Positions 25,883 to 33,128 of a stretch of 33,648 nt of DNA are shown here, one piece after another. A model generated the notes under the pieces. It saw only the letters and a program-made list of their open reading frames with translations. It made no database searches and was not told the origin of the DNA. The DNA is from a virus. Its lineage: Duplodnaviria > Caudoviricetes. The stretch is from positions 1-33,648 of IMG/VR virus record IMGVR_UViG_3300032216_000739; one strand, given 5' to 3'. Positions within the stretch are counted from its first letter, which is position 1; every line of letters begins with the position of its first letter. A program made the position numbers and the translations under genes.

Positions 25883-26163
25883 CGCACCCGCCGCCATTTT
25901 TGAAAGATAGCGTTCGGACTGCGGCCCATTTCCCGCGCCAGTTGTTTACCTGACTTGTGACCGTACTCGGCTTTGAGTTTGGCAACTTGCTCGTCAGTCC
26001 ACTCAAATTGCACAGTCAGCCCCAGCGCACGCGCTTTGCCTCGCACCGCCGTCTTGCTGCGCCCGATCTGCGCGCCAATCTCGGCTGCGCTCTGGCGCAA
26101 GTATTGCGTTTCGATCAAGCGCACTTCCTGGTGCGTCCAATGCTTGTACGCACGGAGGTTCAT
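25879..26163 (-). CDS. DNA-binding protein with two Myb/SANT-like HTH repeats
   Basis: WTHQEVRLIETQY...IGRSKTAVRGKA and WTDEQVAKLKAEY...MGRSPNAI. Confidence 0.7.
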   Translation of the reverse strand: MNLRAYKHWTHQEVRLIETQYLRQSAAEIGAQIGRSKTAVRGKARALGLTVQFEWTDEQVAKLKAEYGHKSGKQLAREMGRSPNAIFQKWRRVR

Positions 26164-26387
26164 ACCTGCCCCCTTGCACGGATGATGTCAACCAAGTGCT
26201 TAAGCAATGATTGATCGTCGTCAGACAGATCCTTACGCCCAGCGTATTCCCACAGGACGTTCAACACCGCCTCACGCTCGGTTTTGGCAACCAGTTCGGC
26301 AAAGTGATAGCGAATGTAAATTTCACCGGCAGCAATAGATTCGTGCTGCGCTTGGTGCCACAACGTATCAAGTTCATCGCGGGTCAT
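26160..26387 (-). CDS. Hypothetical protein (MTRDELD...FAELVA..ERE...IRARG)
   Basis: GGGAGG SD before ATG 26387; ATGA overlaps at both ends. Confidence 0.7.
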   Translation of the reverse strand: MTRDELDTLWHQAQHESIAAGEIYIRYHFAELVAKTEREAVLNVLWEYAGRKDLSDDDQSLLKHLVDIIRARGQV

Positions 26388-26467
26388 TTCTTCCTCCCTA
26401 AAATCGACACCAAGCACAGCGCAACGCATACGCCAACGATCAGCCACAACTGAATTTGTCCAGTCAT
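26384..26467 (-). CDS. 27-aa membrane peptide MTGQIQLWLIVGVCVALCLVSILGRKK (not in ORF track)
   Basis: ATGA overlaps at both ends (26464-26467 and 26384-26387); one hydrophobic helix and a basic tail. Confidence 0.7.
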   Translation of the reverse strand: MTGQIQLWLIVGVCVALCLVSILGRKK

Positions 26468-26769
26468 TTTTGTTTCCTTTTTCTGTTGATTCCACGAATC
26501 ACGTTTCTAACAGGCATCACGGCGCGGTTGAGCGCCAAAGCAATCTGGCCCGCAGTCATCGGGCCATAGTTGGTGGCGACAAAGGCACGCTCCTCGTCCG
26601 TCCAGTTGCCAACCTTATGCGGCACGCCGTTGCAAAAGTGCATCCGGCCATCTACATTCACCAGCCGCCATTGGCCCGCGTTGTCGCCCTTTTGCACAAG
26701 TTCACGCCACACAGTGCAGCCACACGCGCACTGCACCTCGCCGCCTACTTCGTCTTGAATCTGTATCAT
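26464..26769 (-). CDS. Putative regulator: Zn-ribbon-like N-terminus plus Myb-like HTH
   Basis: CACGC...H.C followed by WTDEERAFVATNY...IALALNR; first gene of the leftward operon. Confidence 0.65.
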   Translation of the reverse strand: MIQIQDEVGGEVQCACGCTVWRELVQKGDNAGQWRLVNVDGRMHFCNGVPHKVGNWTDEERAFVATNYGPMTAGQIALALNRAVMPVRNVIRGINRKRKQK

Positions 26770-26859
26770 GGTGCAACGCTATCACACCGAAAAAGTATTT
26801 GACAAGCTATTTTTTGACAGGCAGGATAGCCACTCGATCAACAACAGTAAGGAACGGTT
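26770..26859. promoter_or_regulatory. Divergent promoter region
   Basis: AT-rich gap. Plus strand has TTGACA at 26799 and 26814. Minus strand has TTGTCA-18 nt-TAGCGT with a TG extension. Confidence 0.7.
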
Positions 26860-27978
26860 ATGCAACATTCATCCGTGGTTGGCGGCTCTACCGCCAAGCG
26901 CGTCATCAACTGCCCCGCTTCGGTGGAGTTGTCCAACAAGATGCCCCCGCGTCCGTCAAGCAAGGACGCTGACAAAGGCACGCTCTTGCACAACGTCATC
27001 GCTTTGCACTTGGAAGGTCACGGCGAGTTCAAAGACTTTCTGGGTATGACCTATGAGGACATCACGCTCACGCAAGACATGATTGACGACAAGCTGCAAC
27101 CGGCGATTGATGCGCTGATGCAGATTGACCCCGAGAGCGTCATGGAGTATGCAGTCGAGCAGCGCGTGGAGTTCGGCTCACAGTTGCCTGGCGTATTCGG
27201 CTCGACCGATCTGATTGGCCGCGTCGGTGATCGCGTCATCTCACTGGACTGGAAGTTTGGCGACGGCGTGATCGTTGAGGCCGAGGAAAACCCGCAGGGA
27301 CTGTTTTACGTTGCCGCTGCGATGTACAACAAAAACCTCATGTGGGTGTTTGACGGCGCAACCGACATTGAGATTGTCATTGTCCAGCCGCCTTTTGTGC
27401 GCCGCTGGGTGACGACCTTTGACCGTGTGCGCTTGTTCGAGCGTGAGTTGGTGCTGGCTGTCAAGCAGGCGCAGGGGCCGAACCCGCCGCTGCGTGCGGG
27501 CGATCATTGCCGCTGGTGCGCGGCCAAGCCGATTTGCCCTGCGATGAACGGCGCACAGGATCGCGTGATGGCGCTGGCATTGAAGGAACTCGATGTCAAG
27601 CAGCTAGGCGCGGCGCTGGATCAAGTGGATCTGGTCGAGCAGCGCATTGCCGATTTGCGTGCGCTGGCGCAGCAGGTGCTGGAAAGCGGTGGTACAGTAC
27701 CTGGCTACAAGCTGGTTGCTAAACGCGCCACCCGCAAGTGGGCTGATGAAGCTGCTGCTAAGGCGGCGCTTCTGACGCAGCTTGAAGAATCTGAAGTGAT
27801 GGAAACCAGTCTTGTCTCTCCCGCGCAAGCGGAGAAGAAACTCAAGAAGGTCAAAGGCACACTGCCCGAGACCAGTTCCGTCAGTTCTGGTAACACGATG
27901 GTCGCAGACTCTGATCCGCGCCCGTCCGTGTTGTTGATCGGGCAGCAGATGACTGCGGCCCTTGCGAAGTTGAGCTAA
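26860..27978 (+). CDS. Cas4-like PD-(D/E)xK exonuclease (DUF2800 family)
   Basis: HS.VGGS...R...CP.S, GT.LH, FGSTD, DWKFG, and C-terminal CRWC.....CP giving a 4-Cys Fe-S pattern. Confidence 0.85.
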   Translation: MQHSSVVGGSTAKRVINCPASVELSNKMPPRPSSKDADKGTLLHNVIALHLEGHGEFKDFLGMTYEDITLTQDMIDDKLQPAIDALMQIDPESVMEYAVEQRVEFGSQLPGVFGSTDLIGRVGDRVISLDWKFGDGVIVEAEENPQGLFYVAAAMYNKNLMWVFDGATDIEIVIVQPPFVRRWVTTFDRVRLFERELVLAVKQAQGPNPPLRAGDHCRWCAAKPICPAMNGAQDRVMALALKELDVKQLGAALDQVDLVEQRIADLRALAQQVLESGGTVPGYKLVAKRATRKWADEAAAKAALLTQLEESEVMETSLVSPAQAEKKLKKVKGTLPETSSVSSGNTMVADSDPRPSVLLIGQQMTAALAKLS

Positions 27979-28001
27979 CCTAAACTCTGGAGTATCGAAA
28001 C

Positions 28002-28652
28002 GTGTCTACTAACGTAAGTGTGTTTTCGGGTGCGGGCTTGCCCGCTGTTGCGTCGCTAACCACTGCCCTGCGGTCGGTGGCTGCCGATGTGTCCAACCTT
28101 GGCTCGACCATCATCAAGATGGACAAGTTCGGGTCTTGGGTGTTTGGTGCGGATCAGACCGAGGTCGAGGACGATTCGACTTGGGCCGTCAACCCGTTCT
28201 CCTTTGTCCACGGCTACATTGCGTGGGGTGACGGCGAGGTGCTGGCTGAAAAGATGGTTCCCATCACGCAGCCGTTGCCGGAAGTCGATGCCCCGCCGCC
28301 TGGCGCGAAGAAGGGCTGGGAGACGCAGGTGGGTTTGTCGGTCAAGTGCTTGAACGGTGAGGACGCGGGCTTGGAAGCGCGTTACAGCGCAACCAGCTTG
28401 GGCGGCAAGCGTGCCATTCAGGCGCTGGCCGTGGCGATTGCCGGACAGGTTGAGGCTGATTCGACCAAGCCTGTGCCGGTCGTGGCGCTCAAGACGGATC
28501 ATTACATCCACAAGCAGTACGGCAAGGTGTTCACCCCCGTGCTTGAAGTGGTGAAGTGGATCGGCATGGACGGTGAGGCTCCCGCCGCACCGGCTGCTGC
28601 CGAACCGGAATCTGCACCGGCTCCTGCCGGTCGCCGTCGCCGGAACGTGTAA
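28002..28652 (+). CDS. Putative ssDNA-binding protein
   Basis: Sits between the Cas4-like nuclease and polA, the SSB slot of APSE-like modules; aromatic beta-rich core, Y.HK.YG...TP, flexible tail. Confidence 0.65.
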   Translation: MSTNVSVFSGAGLPAVASLTTALRSVAADVSNLGSTIIKMDKFGSWVFGADQTEVEDDSTWAVNPFSFVHGYIAWGDGEVLAEKMVPITQPLPEVDAPPPGAKKGWETQVGLSVKCLNGEDAGLEARYSATSLGGKRAIQALAVAIAGQVEADSTKPVPVVALKTDHYIHKQYGKVFTPVLEVVKWIGMDGEAPAAPAAAEPESAPAPAGRRRRNV

Positions 28653-28658
28653 AAGGAT

Positions 28659-28752
28659 TGGGAGGTTGTCAGGCAGACAATCAAGGATGTCGATGCGTGC
28701 GGTTTTTCTGCCTTCCCGCACGCCTTGTCAAAGACCAAATTGAGACCTCCCA
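28659..28752 (+). ncRNA. Candidate structured cis-regulatory RNA in the DNA polymerase leader
   Basis: TGGGAGGT/ACCTCCCA outer stem, GCGTGCGG/CCGCACGC inner stem, and AGGCAGA/TCTGCCT pseudoknot complement. Confidence 0.6.
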
Positions 28753-30707
28753 TGTCTATTCTATGGCTTGACTTTGAAACGCGCTCCCGCTGTGACCTCA
28801 AAGCAGCGGGGGTGTACAACTACGCGCAGGATGCCAGCACCGAAGTACTGTGTATGTCCTACGCCTTTGACGATGAACCTGTTAAAACATGGGTTCCCGA
28901 ATTAACATTTCCTGAGAACGTGTTAAATCACACGGGCCAAATACGCGCACATAACGCCGCGTTTGAACGGCTTATCTGCTGGTATGTCCTACACTTGAAC
29001 TTCCGGCTTGAGCAGTTCTACTGCACAGCCACCCAAGCCCGCGCCAACTGTGCGCCTGGTAGCCTTGAGGATGTCGGGCGCTTTGCTGGCGCTAGCATGA
29101 AAAAAGACCATCGCGGCAATCAGTTGATTCGGCTGCTGTCGATCCCGCGTGCTGATGGTACGTTTAACAACGATCCCGATCTGATGGCCGAATTTTTTGC
29201 CTACTGCGAGCAGGATGTGCGTGCCATGCGTGCGGTGTCCCAAGCACTGCGGGATCTATCAGCCGAGGAGTTGGCCGACTACCATGTGAACGAGCGTATC
29301 AACGACCGTGGCGTGCTGATTGACACCGAACTGTGCGACGCCGCGCAGACCTATGCGCTTGAGGAACTGGACTCCATCCAGCAGCAAGTAATCGAAATAA
29401 CCGAAGGCGCTGTGACTAGCGTGCGCTCGCCCAAGATGCGCGAGTGGGTGCTGGATCGCGTGGGCGAGGATGCCAAGGCGCTCATGCTGGTGCATAAGGA
29501 CGGCCAGAGCCGCTACAGCATCGACAAGTCCATCCGCGCAAACCTGCTGGCGCTGGCCGATGAACAGCCCGAGCAAGTGCCGCCTGATGTGGCGTTGGTC
29601 ATTCAAGGCGCTGATGATCTGTGGGCCAGCAGTACCGCCAAGTTCAAGCGGCTGGCGGCGCTGGCTGATGTCGAGGATAGGCGCGTGCGCGGTGCGTTCG
29701 TGTTTGCTGGCGGTGCGGCGACTGGCCGTGCTTCCAGCTACGGCGCACAGGTGCATAACTTCCCCCGTAAGTGCGCCAAGGATCCTGACAGCGTGCGCCG
29801 TGCGATGGTGCGCGGGCATGATCTAGTGCCGACACACGGCAAGCGCATCAACGATGTTTTGAAGGGGATGCTGCGTCCGGCCATGCTACCGGCCAAGGGC
29901 AACGTGTTTGTCGTGGCCGACTGGTCAGCGATTGAGGGCCGCGTGCATCCGTGGCTGTCCAACTGCCCCGCAGGCGAGGCTAAGCTGGATGTGTTTCGCT
30001 CTGGCCTTGATCCGTACAAGGTCAACGCTGCTGCGACGTTCGGCGTGGCGTATGACGCGGTGGATGACAGCCAGCGGCAAGTCGGCAAGGTGCAGGAACT
30101 GGCGCTGGGCTTTTTAGGCGGGCCTGGTGCGTTTACGACCTTCGGGCGCATCTACGGCGTGTCGATGTCCGACGCACAAGTAGCGCGTGCCGTCAAGGGC
30201 TGGCGCAAGGCAAACCCGTGGGCGATGCAGCACGGCGAGGCGCTAGAGCGTGCGTATACGTCTGCTCTGCGGCATAAGGGCCGCGAGTTTACCGCTGGCC
30301 GCGTGACGTATCTGTTTGATGGCACGCATCTCTGGTATGCGCTGCCGTCTGGCCGTATTCTATGCTATCCCTTCGCCCGTCTGGATGCCGATGGTGTCAG
30401 CTACGCCAAAGCCTCTTGGAAGCCCGCCGCTGACGCCAAAGAATGGCCCCGTGGCCGTCTCTGGCGAGGGCTGGCTTGCGAAAACGTCACCCAAGCTGCG
30501 GCCAACGACATCCTGCGCGGTAGCTTGCGGCAGTTGGATGGCGCTGTCCTCCACGTTCACGACGAAATCGTGGTTGAATGCCCGTCCGGAGAAGCTGACG
30601 CGACGGTGGCCCGCATGAATCAAGTGATGAATACCGCGCCCGCATGGGCTACCGGCCTGCCGCTGGGCAGCGCCATCAAGGTGATGGAACGCTACGGCAA
30701 GGGCTAA
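28752..30707 (+). CDS. polA: Family A DNA polymerase with 3'-5' exonuclease (APSE-like)
   Basis: Exo I DFETRS, Exo II AHNAAFE, Exo III YCEQDV; motif A DWSAIEGR, motif B RQVGKVQELALGF, motif C VHDEIV. Confidence 0.95.
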   Translation: MSILWLDFETRSRCDLKAAGVYNYAQDASTEVLCMSYAFDDEPVKTWVPELTFPENVLNHTGQIRAHNAAFERLICWYVLHLNFRLEQFYCTATQARANCAPGSLEDVGRFAGASMKKDHRGNQLIRLLSIPRADGTFNNDPDLMAEFFAYCEQDVRAMRAVSQALRDLSAEELADYHVNERINDRGVLIDTELCDAAQTYALEELDSIQQQVIEITEGAVTSVRSPKMREWVLDRVGEDAKALMLVHKDGQSRYSIDKSIRANLLALADEQPEQVPPDVALVIQGADDLWASSTAKFKRLAALADVEDRRVRGAFVFAGGAATGRASSYGAQVHNFPRKCAKDPDSVRRAMVRGHDLVPTHGKRINDVLKGMLRPAMLPAKGNVFVVADWSAIEGRVHPWLSNCPAGEAKLDVFRSGLDPYKVNAAATFGVAYDAVDDSQRQVGKVQELALGFLGGPGAFTTFGRIYGVSMSDAQVARAVKGWRKANPWAMQHGEALERAYTSALRHKGREFTAGRVTYLFDGTHLWYALPSGRILCYPFARLDADGVSYAKASWKPAADAKEWPRGRLWRGLACENVTQAAANDILRGSLRQLDGAVLHVHDEIVVECPSGEADATVARMNQVMNTAPAWATGLPLGSAIKVMERYGKG

Positions 30708-30713
30708 CAGACG

Positions 30714-30746
30714 AAAAAAAAGCCCCGCCGGTTGAGGGCGGGGCTT
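30714..30746 (-). terminator. Terminator-like hairpin with U-tract on the minus strand
   Basis: A8 run overlapping AAGCCCCGCC-GGTTGAG-GGCGGGGCTT. Confidence 0.65.
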
Positions 30747-30773
30747 GAAGCACACAACAGAGGAACGAACCCG

Positions 30774-33128
30774 ATGAACAAGACGAAGTTTACCCCCGAG
30801 CAAACACAGTTTGCAAGCTATCTATCCGGCATCGCCCCCGAAGGCGAGACGGTGCTGTTTGTGCGTCAGAAGCCGCGCAAAGACCGCGACGGCCAGTTGC
30901 AGTACCACAAGGACGGTGCGATCAAATGCACTTGGCCTGCCTTCCTGCCCGAGCGATACAAGGGCGACGGTGCGTGGTACGCCAACACCGGCTGTTTCAT
31001 CATCTCGCGCTTTGTCGAGGGGCAGGTATCGGCCAGCGCCGCCAACTGTGAGCGTGTGGCCTTTCTGGTGCTGGATGACATCGGCACGAAAAGCAAAGTG
31101 CCGCCGCTGGCCCCGACTTGGATTATTGAAACCAGCCGCGACAACTACCAATGGGGCTATACCTTTGGCCTTGATGACCAGCCGCGAACCGGCGAGTTCG
31201 CCGCGGCGATCAAGGCCATTGCCCAAGCCGGATACACCGATGGCGGCGCGATTAACGCGGTGCGTAACTTTCGCCTGCCTGGGTCAGTGAACCTCAAGCC
31301 TGGCAAGGGCGATTTTGCCGCCCGCTTGGTCGAGTTGCATCCTGACCGCGAGTTTACGCTGGCCGGTATCTGCGCCGCGCTGGGCGTTGAGCCTGGCGAG
31401 GCCGACACCGCCGTGCGCCAGCGGCTGGCCGTGGCCGATGACGGGCTGGACGATGTGCTGCGCTGGCTGGATTCGTCCGCGTTGGTGCTGGAGCCGCGCA
31501 ACCCTGAAGGCTGGTACGGGGTGCAGTGCCCCAACCACGCCGAGCATTCGGACGGCAACCCGATGGGCCGCTATATGCCCGTTACGCGTGCCTACACCTG
31601 TTTTCATGAGCATTGCGGCGACTGGGACTCGCGGCGCTTTCTGGAGTGGGTGGACGCCGAGGGCGGCCCCAAGCACGCGCCTGGTCTGCGCGATGATTTG
31701 CTGGCCGCGACCATGACCAGTGCGCTGGCAGTCATTGCGCCCACGGATGCATTCCCTGACCGTGCGCGGGAAGTGATCGCGCAGGTAGAGGCGCGGGAAA
31801 TTGGCCGCGTTGAAAAAGCACAATGGTGGCAGCGGTTCGCCTACGTCGAGTCGGATGACAGCTATTTTGATCTGGTTGACCGGCGCGAGTATCCACGCGG
31901 GACGTTTAACGCGTTGTTTAGGCACGTTTCCAGCGTGTCGATTCACGGGGGCCGCCGCGTTGAGGCTAGCGTGTGTTTTGACGAAAACCGGCAGGCAATG
32001 GGCGCTCGCACTCTTGCGGGTATTACCTACGCCGCTGGCGATGGGCAGCTAGTGACGCAAAACGGGCTTGTGTACGGCAACCGCTGGCGCGATGCCCGCG
32101 TGCCGCTGCCTGCGGACGCGGGGGATATCACCCCGTGGCTGGCGCACGCCGAACTGCTGATTCCTAATGACGCTGAAAGGAACCATGTGTTTGATGTCAT
32201 GGCCTGCAAGCTGCAAAACCCCCGCGCCAAGATCAACCATGCCGTGCTGCACGCTGGCACGCAAGGCTGCGGTAAGGATACGCTCTGGCACCCGCTAATC
32301 TGGGCCGTCTGCGGCTCGCCGCCAGTGAATAAGGGCCTGGTGGACGCGGATAACCTGTCGTCGCAATGGGGCTACGCGCTGGAGGCCGAGATTCTGGTCT
32401 TAAACGAACTGCGCGATCCGGACGGGGCTGCGCGGCGGGCGCTAGCCAACCGGCTCAAGCCGATCATTGCCGCGCCACCCGAGACGCTTTCAATCAACCG
32501 CAAGGGCTTGCACCCTTACGATATGGTCAATCGGCTTTTCGTGCTGGCGTTCTCTAATGACCGCGTGCCGATCATGCTGGAGTCGCAGGATCGCCGCTGG
32601 TTCGCGCTCTACTCTAACGCGCCGCGTATGACGCCCGTAGAGGCTGCGGCGCTCTGGCGCTGGTATGGGGCCGGTGGCGCTGGCCGCGTGGCGCGGTGGC
32701 TGGCCCAGCGCGATATAGCGCACTTTGACCCTGCGGCCACCCCGTTGACCACGGAATATAAGCTGTCGTTGATTGAGCAAGGCATGAGCAATGCCGAGGC
32801 GTGGCTTGTGGACGCGATCCGCCAGCGGGTGGGTGAGTTTAGCCTGGGCGTGGTCGGTTCGCCGTTCCATTCATTGATTGACCGCCTGCAAGGCATGGCC
32901 CCCAATGGCGTGAAGCTGGTTCAACCGGCGCTGATTCATGCGCTAGACGAATGCGGGTGGCGCGACATGGGCCGGATCGCCAGCGCCGATTACCCGACAA
33001 AAAAGCACATATTCGCCGCGCCCGATGTTGCCGCATACGGCTACAGCAAGTCGGAATTGCGGCGTATGGCCGAAGGGCCGGTTAGCCCGCCTACGCTCTC
33101 GCTGGTCACAAAAAAGCCCGCCGGTTAA
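30774..33128 (+). CDS. Primase-helicase: RepB-type primase, Zn finger and SF3/DUF5906-like ATPase
   Basis: LVLDDIG, ETSRDNYQWGY, RNFRLPGS.N.K; CPNHAEHS...CFHEHC; Walker A GTQGCGKDT, Walker B LVLNE, FSN. Confidence 0.88.
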   Translation: MNKTKFTPEQTQFASYLSGIAPEGETVLFVRQKPRKDRDGQLQYHKDGAIKCTWPAFLPERYKGDGAWYANTGCFIISRFVEGQVSASAANCERVAFLVLDDIGTKSKVPPLAPTWIIETSRDNYQWGYTFGLDDQPRTGEFAAAIKAIAQAGYTDGGAINAVRNFRLPGSVNLKPGKGDFAARLVELHPDREFTLAGICAALGVEPGEADTAVRQRLAVADDGLDDVLRWLDSSALVLEPRNPEGWYGVQCPNHAEHSDGNPMGRYMPVTRAYTCFHEHCGDWDSRRFLEWVDAEGGPKHAPGLRDDLLAATMTSALAVIAPTDAFPDRAREVIAQVEAREIGRVEKAQWWQRFAYVESDDSYFDLVDRREYPRGTFNALFRHVSSVSIHGGRRVEASVCFDENRQAMGARTLAGITYAAGDGQLVTQNGLVYGNRWRDARVPLPADAGDITPWLAHAELLIPNDAERNHVFDVMACKLQNPRAKINHAVLHAGTQGCGKDTLWHPLIWAVCGSPPVNKGLVDADNLSSQWGYALEAEILVLNELRDPDGAARRALANRLKPIIAAPPETLSINRKGLHPYDMVNRLFVLAFSNDRVPIMLESQDRRWFALYSNAPRMTPVEAAALWRWYGAGGAGRVARWLAQRDIAHFDPAATPLTTEYKLSLIEQGMSNAEAWLVDAIRQRVGEFSLGVVGSPFHSLIDRLQGMAPNGVKLVQPALIHALDECGWRDMGRIASADYPTKKHIFAAPDVAAYGYSKSELRRMAEGPVSPPTLSLVTKKPAG

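Follow-up and report, generated by a model that had tools for sequence, protein, structure and literature searches.

Does the folded RNA between two replication genes of a phage control the synthesis of the phage DNA polymerase, or does it serve a purpose of its own? The question is raised by the IMG/VR virus record IMGVR_UViG_3300032216_000739 (Caudoviricetes), analysed here over its whole length of 33,648 bases (the window; about 90% complete). A 99-nt gap in this record, between the gene of a protein resembling single-stranded DNA-binding proteins (SSB-like gene) and the family A DNA polymerase gene polA, holds a structured element that the original prediction, made from the sequence alone, took for an undescribed switch hiding the polA start codon. 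We find the element to be a conserved, pseudoknotted non-coding RNA on the + strand that is not a general polymerase switch. The RNA is well supported and belongs to a phage subfamily, new and sub-threshold, within a catalogued family with no described function, Rfam RF02496 (Atu_At1), which includes the small RNAs At1 and Ti2 of the soil bacterium Agrobacterium fabrum C58. Hundreds of phage sequences are estimated to hold it, at unrelated places.

The helices of the window copy lie where they had been predicted. The outer stem P1 (28659-66/28745-52) pairs U28659 with the A of the polA ATG and gains one extra U.G pair (28667/28744), TCAA at 28681-84 pairs with TTGA at 28740-43 (P2), and the inner stem 28695-702/28716-23 (P4) is present, with loop positions 28707-13 forming the exact complement of 28671-77. 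An alternative hairpin of the latter strand is located at 28666-80, and the polA ATG is without a free Shine-Dalgarno (SD) sequence; most other genes of the window carry a purine-rich one. The prediction had missed a covarying 3-bp stem (P3; 28689-91/28733-35), a conserved GGAU/CAAA internal loop and the pair G28668-C28678. Over a 111-nt stretch the minimum free energy (MFE) is -38.6 kcal/mol (z = -3.52), a value that none of 200 shuffles matched, and a 7-nt complement to the loop alone arises in about 3% of shuffles. P2 and P3 of the window copy rest on covariation, since the energy model gives them probabilities of only 0.03-0.05.

Relatives were found through gene neighbourhood and patterns. 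A blastn search with the window copy and a canonical copy against 50,697 phage records returned chance fragments only, and the first patterns (outer stem plus ATG; a 16-nt core) brought one true homologue each, among 36 and 28 stretches, respectively. The first relatives came from relatives of the SSB-like gene, some of which are trailed by the same RNA. A pattern derived from these SSB-linked copies matched at least 120 stretches in IMG/VR (about 390 estimated; 108 distinct), and 96 cores were retained by pairing at all four P2 positions; alignment A3 holds 94 of them (one core without flanks and L224 were left out; loci are denoted L plus a number). The 100% pairing of P2 in A3 is circular because of this filter, while the unfiltered stems P1 and P4 are 97% and 91% paired, with every pair changing on both sides. 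A second IMG/VR pattern barred the commonest pseudoknot, left its 5' strand free and matched at least 119 stretches (about 220 estimated). No other test of the pseudoknot in the sequences is as clean: among the 93 distinct matches listed, 70 are closely preceded by a perfect 7-nt partner, which comes in 9 sequence variants. Altogether there are at least 160 distinct cores in 222 loci, viral and metagenome-assembled (some contigs are counted twice; included are 6 of the 8 GTDB matches, all from metagenome-assembled genomes), and at least 10 sequence variants of the 7-bp pseudoknot in which pairing is kept. Sequences and compensated variants in these numbers fix the fold and mark its invariant bases.

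Covariation among these homologues is strong, and the fold is conserved. Alignment A5 comprises 100 chosen distinct loci fitted to a model, and so leans to the nested helices and not to the pseudoknot, which is absent from that model. In it, 93.6% of cells are paired and the covariation score is 0.69, where shuffles give 0.225 and slid controls no more than 0.126; the pseudoknot itself is 99.4% paired, with 5 of its 7 pairs changing on both sides. G-U pairs number 107 and A-C pairs 2 across the helices, which identifies the element as RNA of the + strand. The family order is P1 (7-9 bp), bulge, P2, internal loop, P3, junction and P4; seven bases of the 13-nt bulge pair with the P4 loop, the G-C pair closing the bulge is nearly invariant, and the junction holds P4 and a vestigial fifth hairpin. 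Two folds had been said to compete for the bulge, which can also be drawn as a hairpin (28668-28680), as Rfam draws At1. Nearly all sequences could form that hairpin, with U facing a purine, but its purines, two bases common to hairpin and pseudoknot, covary with the loop. Competition is thus not demonstrated, and we read the element as probably one locked fold in which the 7-bp pseudoknot is the conserved pairing.

Table 1. Coordinates of the element and of the adjoining replication genes in the window.
Feature	Position	Strand	Basis
DUF2800 / PD-(D/E)XK nuclease gene, first of the replication module	26860..27978	+	Pfam PF10926, E 1.4e-48
SSB-like gene, predicted OB-type fold	28002..28652	+	AlphaFold model; without Pfam match
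AAGGA tract past the SSB stop; 28655-58 predicted to extend P1 with 28754-57 of polA	28653..28658	+	MFE
P1 (outer stem), 5' strand	28659..28667	+	95.7% paired, with two-sided changes in all 7 family pairs
Bulge closed by G28668-C28678, holding the 5' pseudoknot strand 28671-77	28668..28680	+	G-C in 98/100, A-U in 2/100
P2 5' strand 28681-84, GGAU loop side 28685-88, P3 5' strand 28689-91	28681..28691	+	alignments
P4 hairpin 28695-702/28716-23; 13-nt loop of U4, 3' pseudoknot strand 28707-13 and UC	28695..28723	+	complementarity and alignment
Junction; 28724-27 a 4-nt remnant at the site of the fifth hairpin of At1 and some phage copies	28724..28732	+	
P3 3' strand 28733-35, CAAA side 28736-39, P2 3' strand 28740-43, P1 3' strand 28744-52 (last base: A of the polA ATG)	28733..28752	+	
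Family A DNA polymerase gene (polA)	28752..30707	+	Pfam PF00476, E 1.2e-17; ATG without free SD

The RNAs At1 and Ti2 have been catalogued since 2012. No Rfam family claims the element at its cut-off: the whole window gave no match at cut-off, positions 26000-31000 at E <= 10 gave nothing at the element, and the DUF2800 and DUF2815 RNA motifs had no match in the scans of the window. The first pointer to RF02496 was a weak full-length match (E 0.84), and in a search with 201 nt around the window copy this family was the best of 4227, at 22.2 bits and E 0.11 (cut-off, 60). Models built without At1 sequences recover the link, with rough E-values: within 11 kb, R1 picked out At1 exactly where it is mapped (E 6.5e-5), and R2 found At1 at 5e-7 and 7 of 10 RF02496 members at E <= 9e-4. 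The RF02496 model in turn matched 7 of 14 phage loci at full length with 21-37 bits (best phage copy, 37.4). These alignments in both directions point to a common core architecture of P1, bulge, P2, internal loop, P3 and P4. Helix order, a bulge starting GUYA, a GAUG/CYAA internal loop and a P4 loop of the form U4-N7-UC are shared; At1 holds its own perfect complementary 7-mer pair between bulge and loop (7/7), and phage variants come within one pair of its pseudoknot sequence. Rfam catalogued the family without this pseudoknot, drawing a small hairpin instead. Unlike RF02496 members, the window copy is without the AACGAA hairpin P5 (a 4-nt remnant is left; an unrelated hairpin occupies the place in 6 of 94 phage copies), has a shorter P2 and sits inside a phage operon. 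At 22 bits the window copy falls short of the cut-off of 60, so that the phage element is, by sequence comparison, a diverged sister subfamily of RF02496 and not a member. The claim that the element was undescribed therefore holds as far as Rfam cut-offs go and fails in that the element is related to a described family. The literature searched on the family name and on Ti2 follow-ups yielded the two discovery papers only, with no function, and our searches found no description of the phage motif; it may be one, unnamed, of the 8,495 structured RNAs predicted from IMG/VR (PMC10690425).

The alphaproteobacterial relatives show what such an RNA looks like outside phages. A blastn search with At1 matched 208 plasmid records, Ti2 among them. 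Neighbours of the alphaproteobacterial copies include ligD, ku, CsbD and otsB, which fit the general stress regulon. The sequence GGAAC-N16-NNTT ends 10-13 nt before 7 of 11 of these copies, versus 13 of 1722 background windows, and resembles the EcfG motif GGAAC-N16-CGTT (PMC3892343); such a box precedes 0 of 157 phage copies. According to the discovery papers, At1 runs at 113/115 nt on blots and is highest at high cell density, whereas Ti2 (113 nt) depends on VirA/VirG, is the most abundant Ti-plasmid transcript under vir induction and lies far above its downstream mRNA (PMC3384568). At1 was validated by blot and by rapid amplification of cDNA ends (PMC3738593), and the mapped ends of both RNAs lie a few bases outside P1. 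In GTDB samples the RF02496 model matched 0 of 151 genomes of one class and R2 matched 2 of 151 of one order (the sample centre and a weak non-matching hit); with 23-25 candidates scored per genome, these counts do not mean absence. As an observation apart, Ti2 (L281:1996-2104) scores 80.5 bits as a member of RF02496, which gives A. fabrum C58 a second copy, on pTi, beside At1 on pAt; this redundancy could explain the lack of a deletion phenotype.

The placement of the phage copies shows that the family is not tied to polA. Genes upstream and downstream include several unrelated SSB-type genes, GroES, HNH, small and large terminase, methyltransferases and exonucleases (the scan covered subsets, 33 proteins on the upstream side and 35 on the downstream side), with no common pathway. 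One copy (L249) sits between tRNA-His and tRNA-Tyr, and two, the PHROG-confirmed cases (L185 and L278), are antisense to both neighbours, an endolysin gene and a second gene; by eye, -10-like hexamers stand just before P1 in L185, L278 and several others. In the wider family, L285 and L288 have no annotated same-strand gene downstream. Among 48 records searched whole, 36 of them chosen as carriers, 37 match, each exactly once (six are bacterial assemblies in which just 81 candidates each were scored). Of 103 distinct SSB relatives, 14 have the element behind them, and a quick tree implies 5-9 gains or losses; loci with less than 300 nt past the stop were left out of tree and count, among them L441. 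This locus (SSB identity 92%) and L445 (90%) are the closest SSB relatives, and both have a plain hairpin at the gap instead of the element. Over 122 long loci the next start codon lies from -1 to more than 200 nt away or is absent, and it falls inside P1 in two. A switch dedicated to polymerase translation, as first proposed, is not supported, given a start codon so rarely in the stem, most copies far from polA, antisense copies and the plain hairpins of the closest SSB relatives.

Sequestration of the polA start survives in the closest relatives, where the outer stem does reach the ATG, and fails as a family-wide switch. Four distinct clade members (L007, L044, L442/L443 and L444) have an ATG that adjoins or enters P1, and all preserve the U-A pair with its A. 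Changes within P1 of L444 are compensated, and in three of the four P1 continues for 4 bp into the first codons although the 5' flanks differ. Among 80 relatives, 15 have a 4-nt overlap between the SSB stop and the next start. In this clade P1 might thus cover the polA start as long as no ribosome finishes at the SSB stop (2-6 nt upstream); by opening P1, a terminating ribosome would keep polA translationally coupled to SSB across the inserted RNA. Long-range coupling of this sort is described for rplJL, atpHA and infC-rpmI (PMC6728339), where a stem likewise hides a downstream start and can be opened by an upstream ribosome; here the stem would be part of an inserted RNA, starts past the stop codon and is known from one clade. 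Four related sequences make thin evidence, and we regard local coupling as a possibility somewhat short of an even chance.

What, then, does the RNA do in general? We favour, with confidence poised at the midpoint, a free and stable RNA of the At1/Ti2 type, trimmed from the operon transcript, that binds a host protein as decoy or scaffold, rather than a polymerase switch. A small RNA gene accords better than a cis regulator with the single copy, the shifting position, promoters of its own and a place among tRNAs. P1 would pair the two ends of the RNA and the pseudoknot would lock a compact, nuclease-resistant core, on which the invariant unpaired bases (GUYA, GGAUG, UUUU and CAAA) may form a protein-binding surface, an assignment that we hold in equal balance with its opposite; the partner would be a conserved host protein active under stress or infection. 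That one fold recurs behind a promoter of stress type, in a VirG-dependent transcript and as a single copy in the genomes of many phages suggests that these RNAs have a partner in common and that engaging it benefits the phages. Were the element no more than a polymerase switch, it would be of minor interest. Several observations weigh against a free RNA related to At1. The majority of phage copies are embedded in operons of their own strand (58 of 122 are no more than 15 nt from a stop codon), no promoter is predicted near the element in the window, and release from an operon transcript would need processing. The At1 link stays under the 60-bit Rfam cut-off in every phage copy scored, and R2 missed 3 of 10 RF02496 members and made one unrelated match at E 0.004. 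Deletion of Ti2 is reported to have left tumour formation unchanged (data not shown there; PMC3384568). The size of At1 was about 140 nt by blot but 118 nt by sequencing, and Ti2 was read as part of a 207-nt 5' untranslated region (UTR) (PMC3738593), in which case the discrete RNA may have arisen by decay of a cis element.

Such a cis element is the main rival, although we consider it unlikely overall. The locked fold would block 3'-to-5' decay or mark a cut, so that the upstream gene (SSB, GroES or small terminase) is expressed above the downstream one, and free At1 and Ti2 would be leftovers. The element occupies the spot of terminator-like hairpins in relatives, at the same 5-9 nt from the stop, and the excess of Ti2 over its downstream mRNA (PMC3384568) and the 5' UTR reading (PMC3738593) would agree. 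One copy per genome at shifting places, sometimes antisense to both neighbours or between tRNAs, is hard to reconcile with this role; moreover, a plain hairpin serves in the relatives, which leaves the invariant loop bases unexplained, and only 24 of 160 distinct copies have at least six U in the 8 nt after P1.

A more far-reaching version of the free, protein-binding RNA, which we rate as rather improbable, would make At1, Ti2 and the phage RNAs one unrecognised class, locked by a kissing loop and binding a conserved host protein or signalling molecule. Soil bacteria would make it under general stress or vir programmes, phages would hold one copy to blunt host stress or defence, and in the window's clade the closing stem would also gate polymerase synthesis to ribosomes finishing the SSB gene.

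The remaining readings fare worse. That the element is a ligand-sensing, riboswitch-like regulator of the downstream gene is quite unlikely: a compact pseudoknot with invariant unpaired bases would suit one, and alphaproteobacterial copies are often at a transcript 5' end with a same-strand gene behind, but there is no common downstream pathway, no conserved expression platform at the variable distances to the start codon given above, and some copies stand alone. The T4 gene 43 and gene 32 translational operators, structured RNAs by polymerase and SSB genes with a pseudoknot, are the model for an operator bound by Pol or SSB, as the original prediction had it. For polA this is very unlikely. 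The four clade members keep the U-A pair while the 5' flank varies, and 18 of the 21 polA-adjacent copies listed have no free SD. Against this, the ATG is inside P1 in 4 of 22 polA-adjacent copies, all close relatives, and 7-24 nt outside it in the other 18; 89 of 103 SSB relatives lack the element at the gap, and of 12 such relatives 11 lack it genome-wide and one has it elsewhere; the plasmid relatives have no such polymerase gene adjoining; and the phage family, unlike the T4 operators, is tied to neither gene. There is even less reason to think of a self-cleaving or other ribozyme processing the phage polycistronic RNA, for which an intricate fold, conserved loops, varied neighbourhoods and tRNA arrays could be cited: no Rfam ribozyme matches, and At1 and Ti2 accumulate intact at full motif length (PMC3384568), which argues against internal self-cleavage. 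Least credible is an antisense immunity RNA of the kind of phage P1/P7 C4 (RF01695) and phage P4 CI, pairing with phage targets through bulge and loop. Those RNAs likewise come from phages and are closed by a stem, with one bulge and one large loop; the arrangement of stalk, bulge and major and minor loops is similar to that of CI. RCC, which a tRNA-like 3' RCCA end for RNase P would contain, stands right behind the 7-bp stem in 25 of 94 copies (within a 7-nt stretch in 43, versus 19 upstream). However, no C4 family of Rfam matches, 68 loci hold no position-consistent complements within 1.5 kb, and in 10 whole or near-whole genomes a copy's own bulge and loop yield neither better nor paired targets when compared with the bulges and loops of other variants. 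The reading is largely refuted for targets in the phage's own genome, and a pseudoknot sequence that varies freely while staying paired, with no cognate targets, argues against antisense action.

Further candidates were rejected. An intrinsic terminator (a short hairpin and a U run) was not called at the element site in the window, and strong U tracts are as rare as stated. A special distance from the stop codon is no mark of the element, ordinary hairpins showing the same spacing in 48 of 77 loci. SSB stop, gap and polA lie in one open frame in the window (28650-28754) and in L444, yet readthrough of the stop to an SSB-Pol fusion was dropped, such a frame being found in 2 of 64 copies and not in L044 or L442. 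Likeness to a CsrA/RsmA site was set aside as the key base covaries with P2, and likeness to integron attC as the neighbouring hairpins are without extrahelical bases.

The setting in the window is a replication module that, beside the genes in Table 1, contains a DUF5906 gene of primase-helicase type; a Pfam scan of the window genes also found P22-like portal and coat genes. Homologues of polA begin at the same Met. The AlphaFold model of the SSB-like protein has a mean pLDDT (predicted local distance difference test) of 70.7; its best structural match is a phiC31 integrase-RDF (recombination directionality factor) fusion chain (Z 7.4, root-mean-square deviation 5.0, 138 aligned), followed by OB-fold binders of single-stranded DNA (Z 4.2-4.8). 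No sequence match was found among solved structures, and ESM Atlas matches under 0.9 are leads only. The PHROG label 'nucleotidyltransferase' is judged doubtful, and an SSB function is presumed. The SSB-like family is large, with more than 6,000 relatives, no Pfam model and the nucleotidyltransferase label in PHROGs, yet an OB-fold-like model.

Other structured sequences accompany these genes. A strong terminator-like hairpin, called on the minus strand, lies between polA and the primase-helicase gene of the window (30714-30746). In L081, L069, L103, L068, L078, L108 and L123, other, differing structured or non-coding inserts follow the SSB stop, and small RNAs and genes seem to insert with preference at the SSB-polA gap. 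Immediately 5' of the motif, 14 loci (L161, L167, L168, L176, L178, L198, L215, L227, L228, L237, L253, L258, L260 and L262) have a long hairpin with a conserved stem, a 2x2 internal loop and a variable top, whose 3' end overlaps P1 and which had no Rfam match in the loci scanned. A second stem-closed RNA motif without Rfam match, starting GGGRAAAGCGGAUGC and ending GCAGCGAGUACCC, often adjoins the element (L090:about 2130-2175, L109 after the SSB stop, L176, L237 and L248). A third recurring structured RNA, starting GUUGGUGAAUGCGUAGGCUGAU, occurs in the arrays of L198 and L167, and about 170 nt downstream of the motif in L215 (1200-1317, - strand) lies a Betaproteobacteria-1 RNA of Rfam (91 bits).

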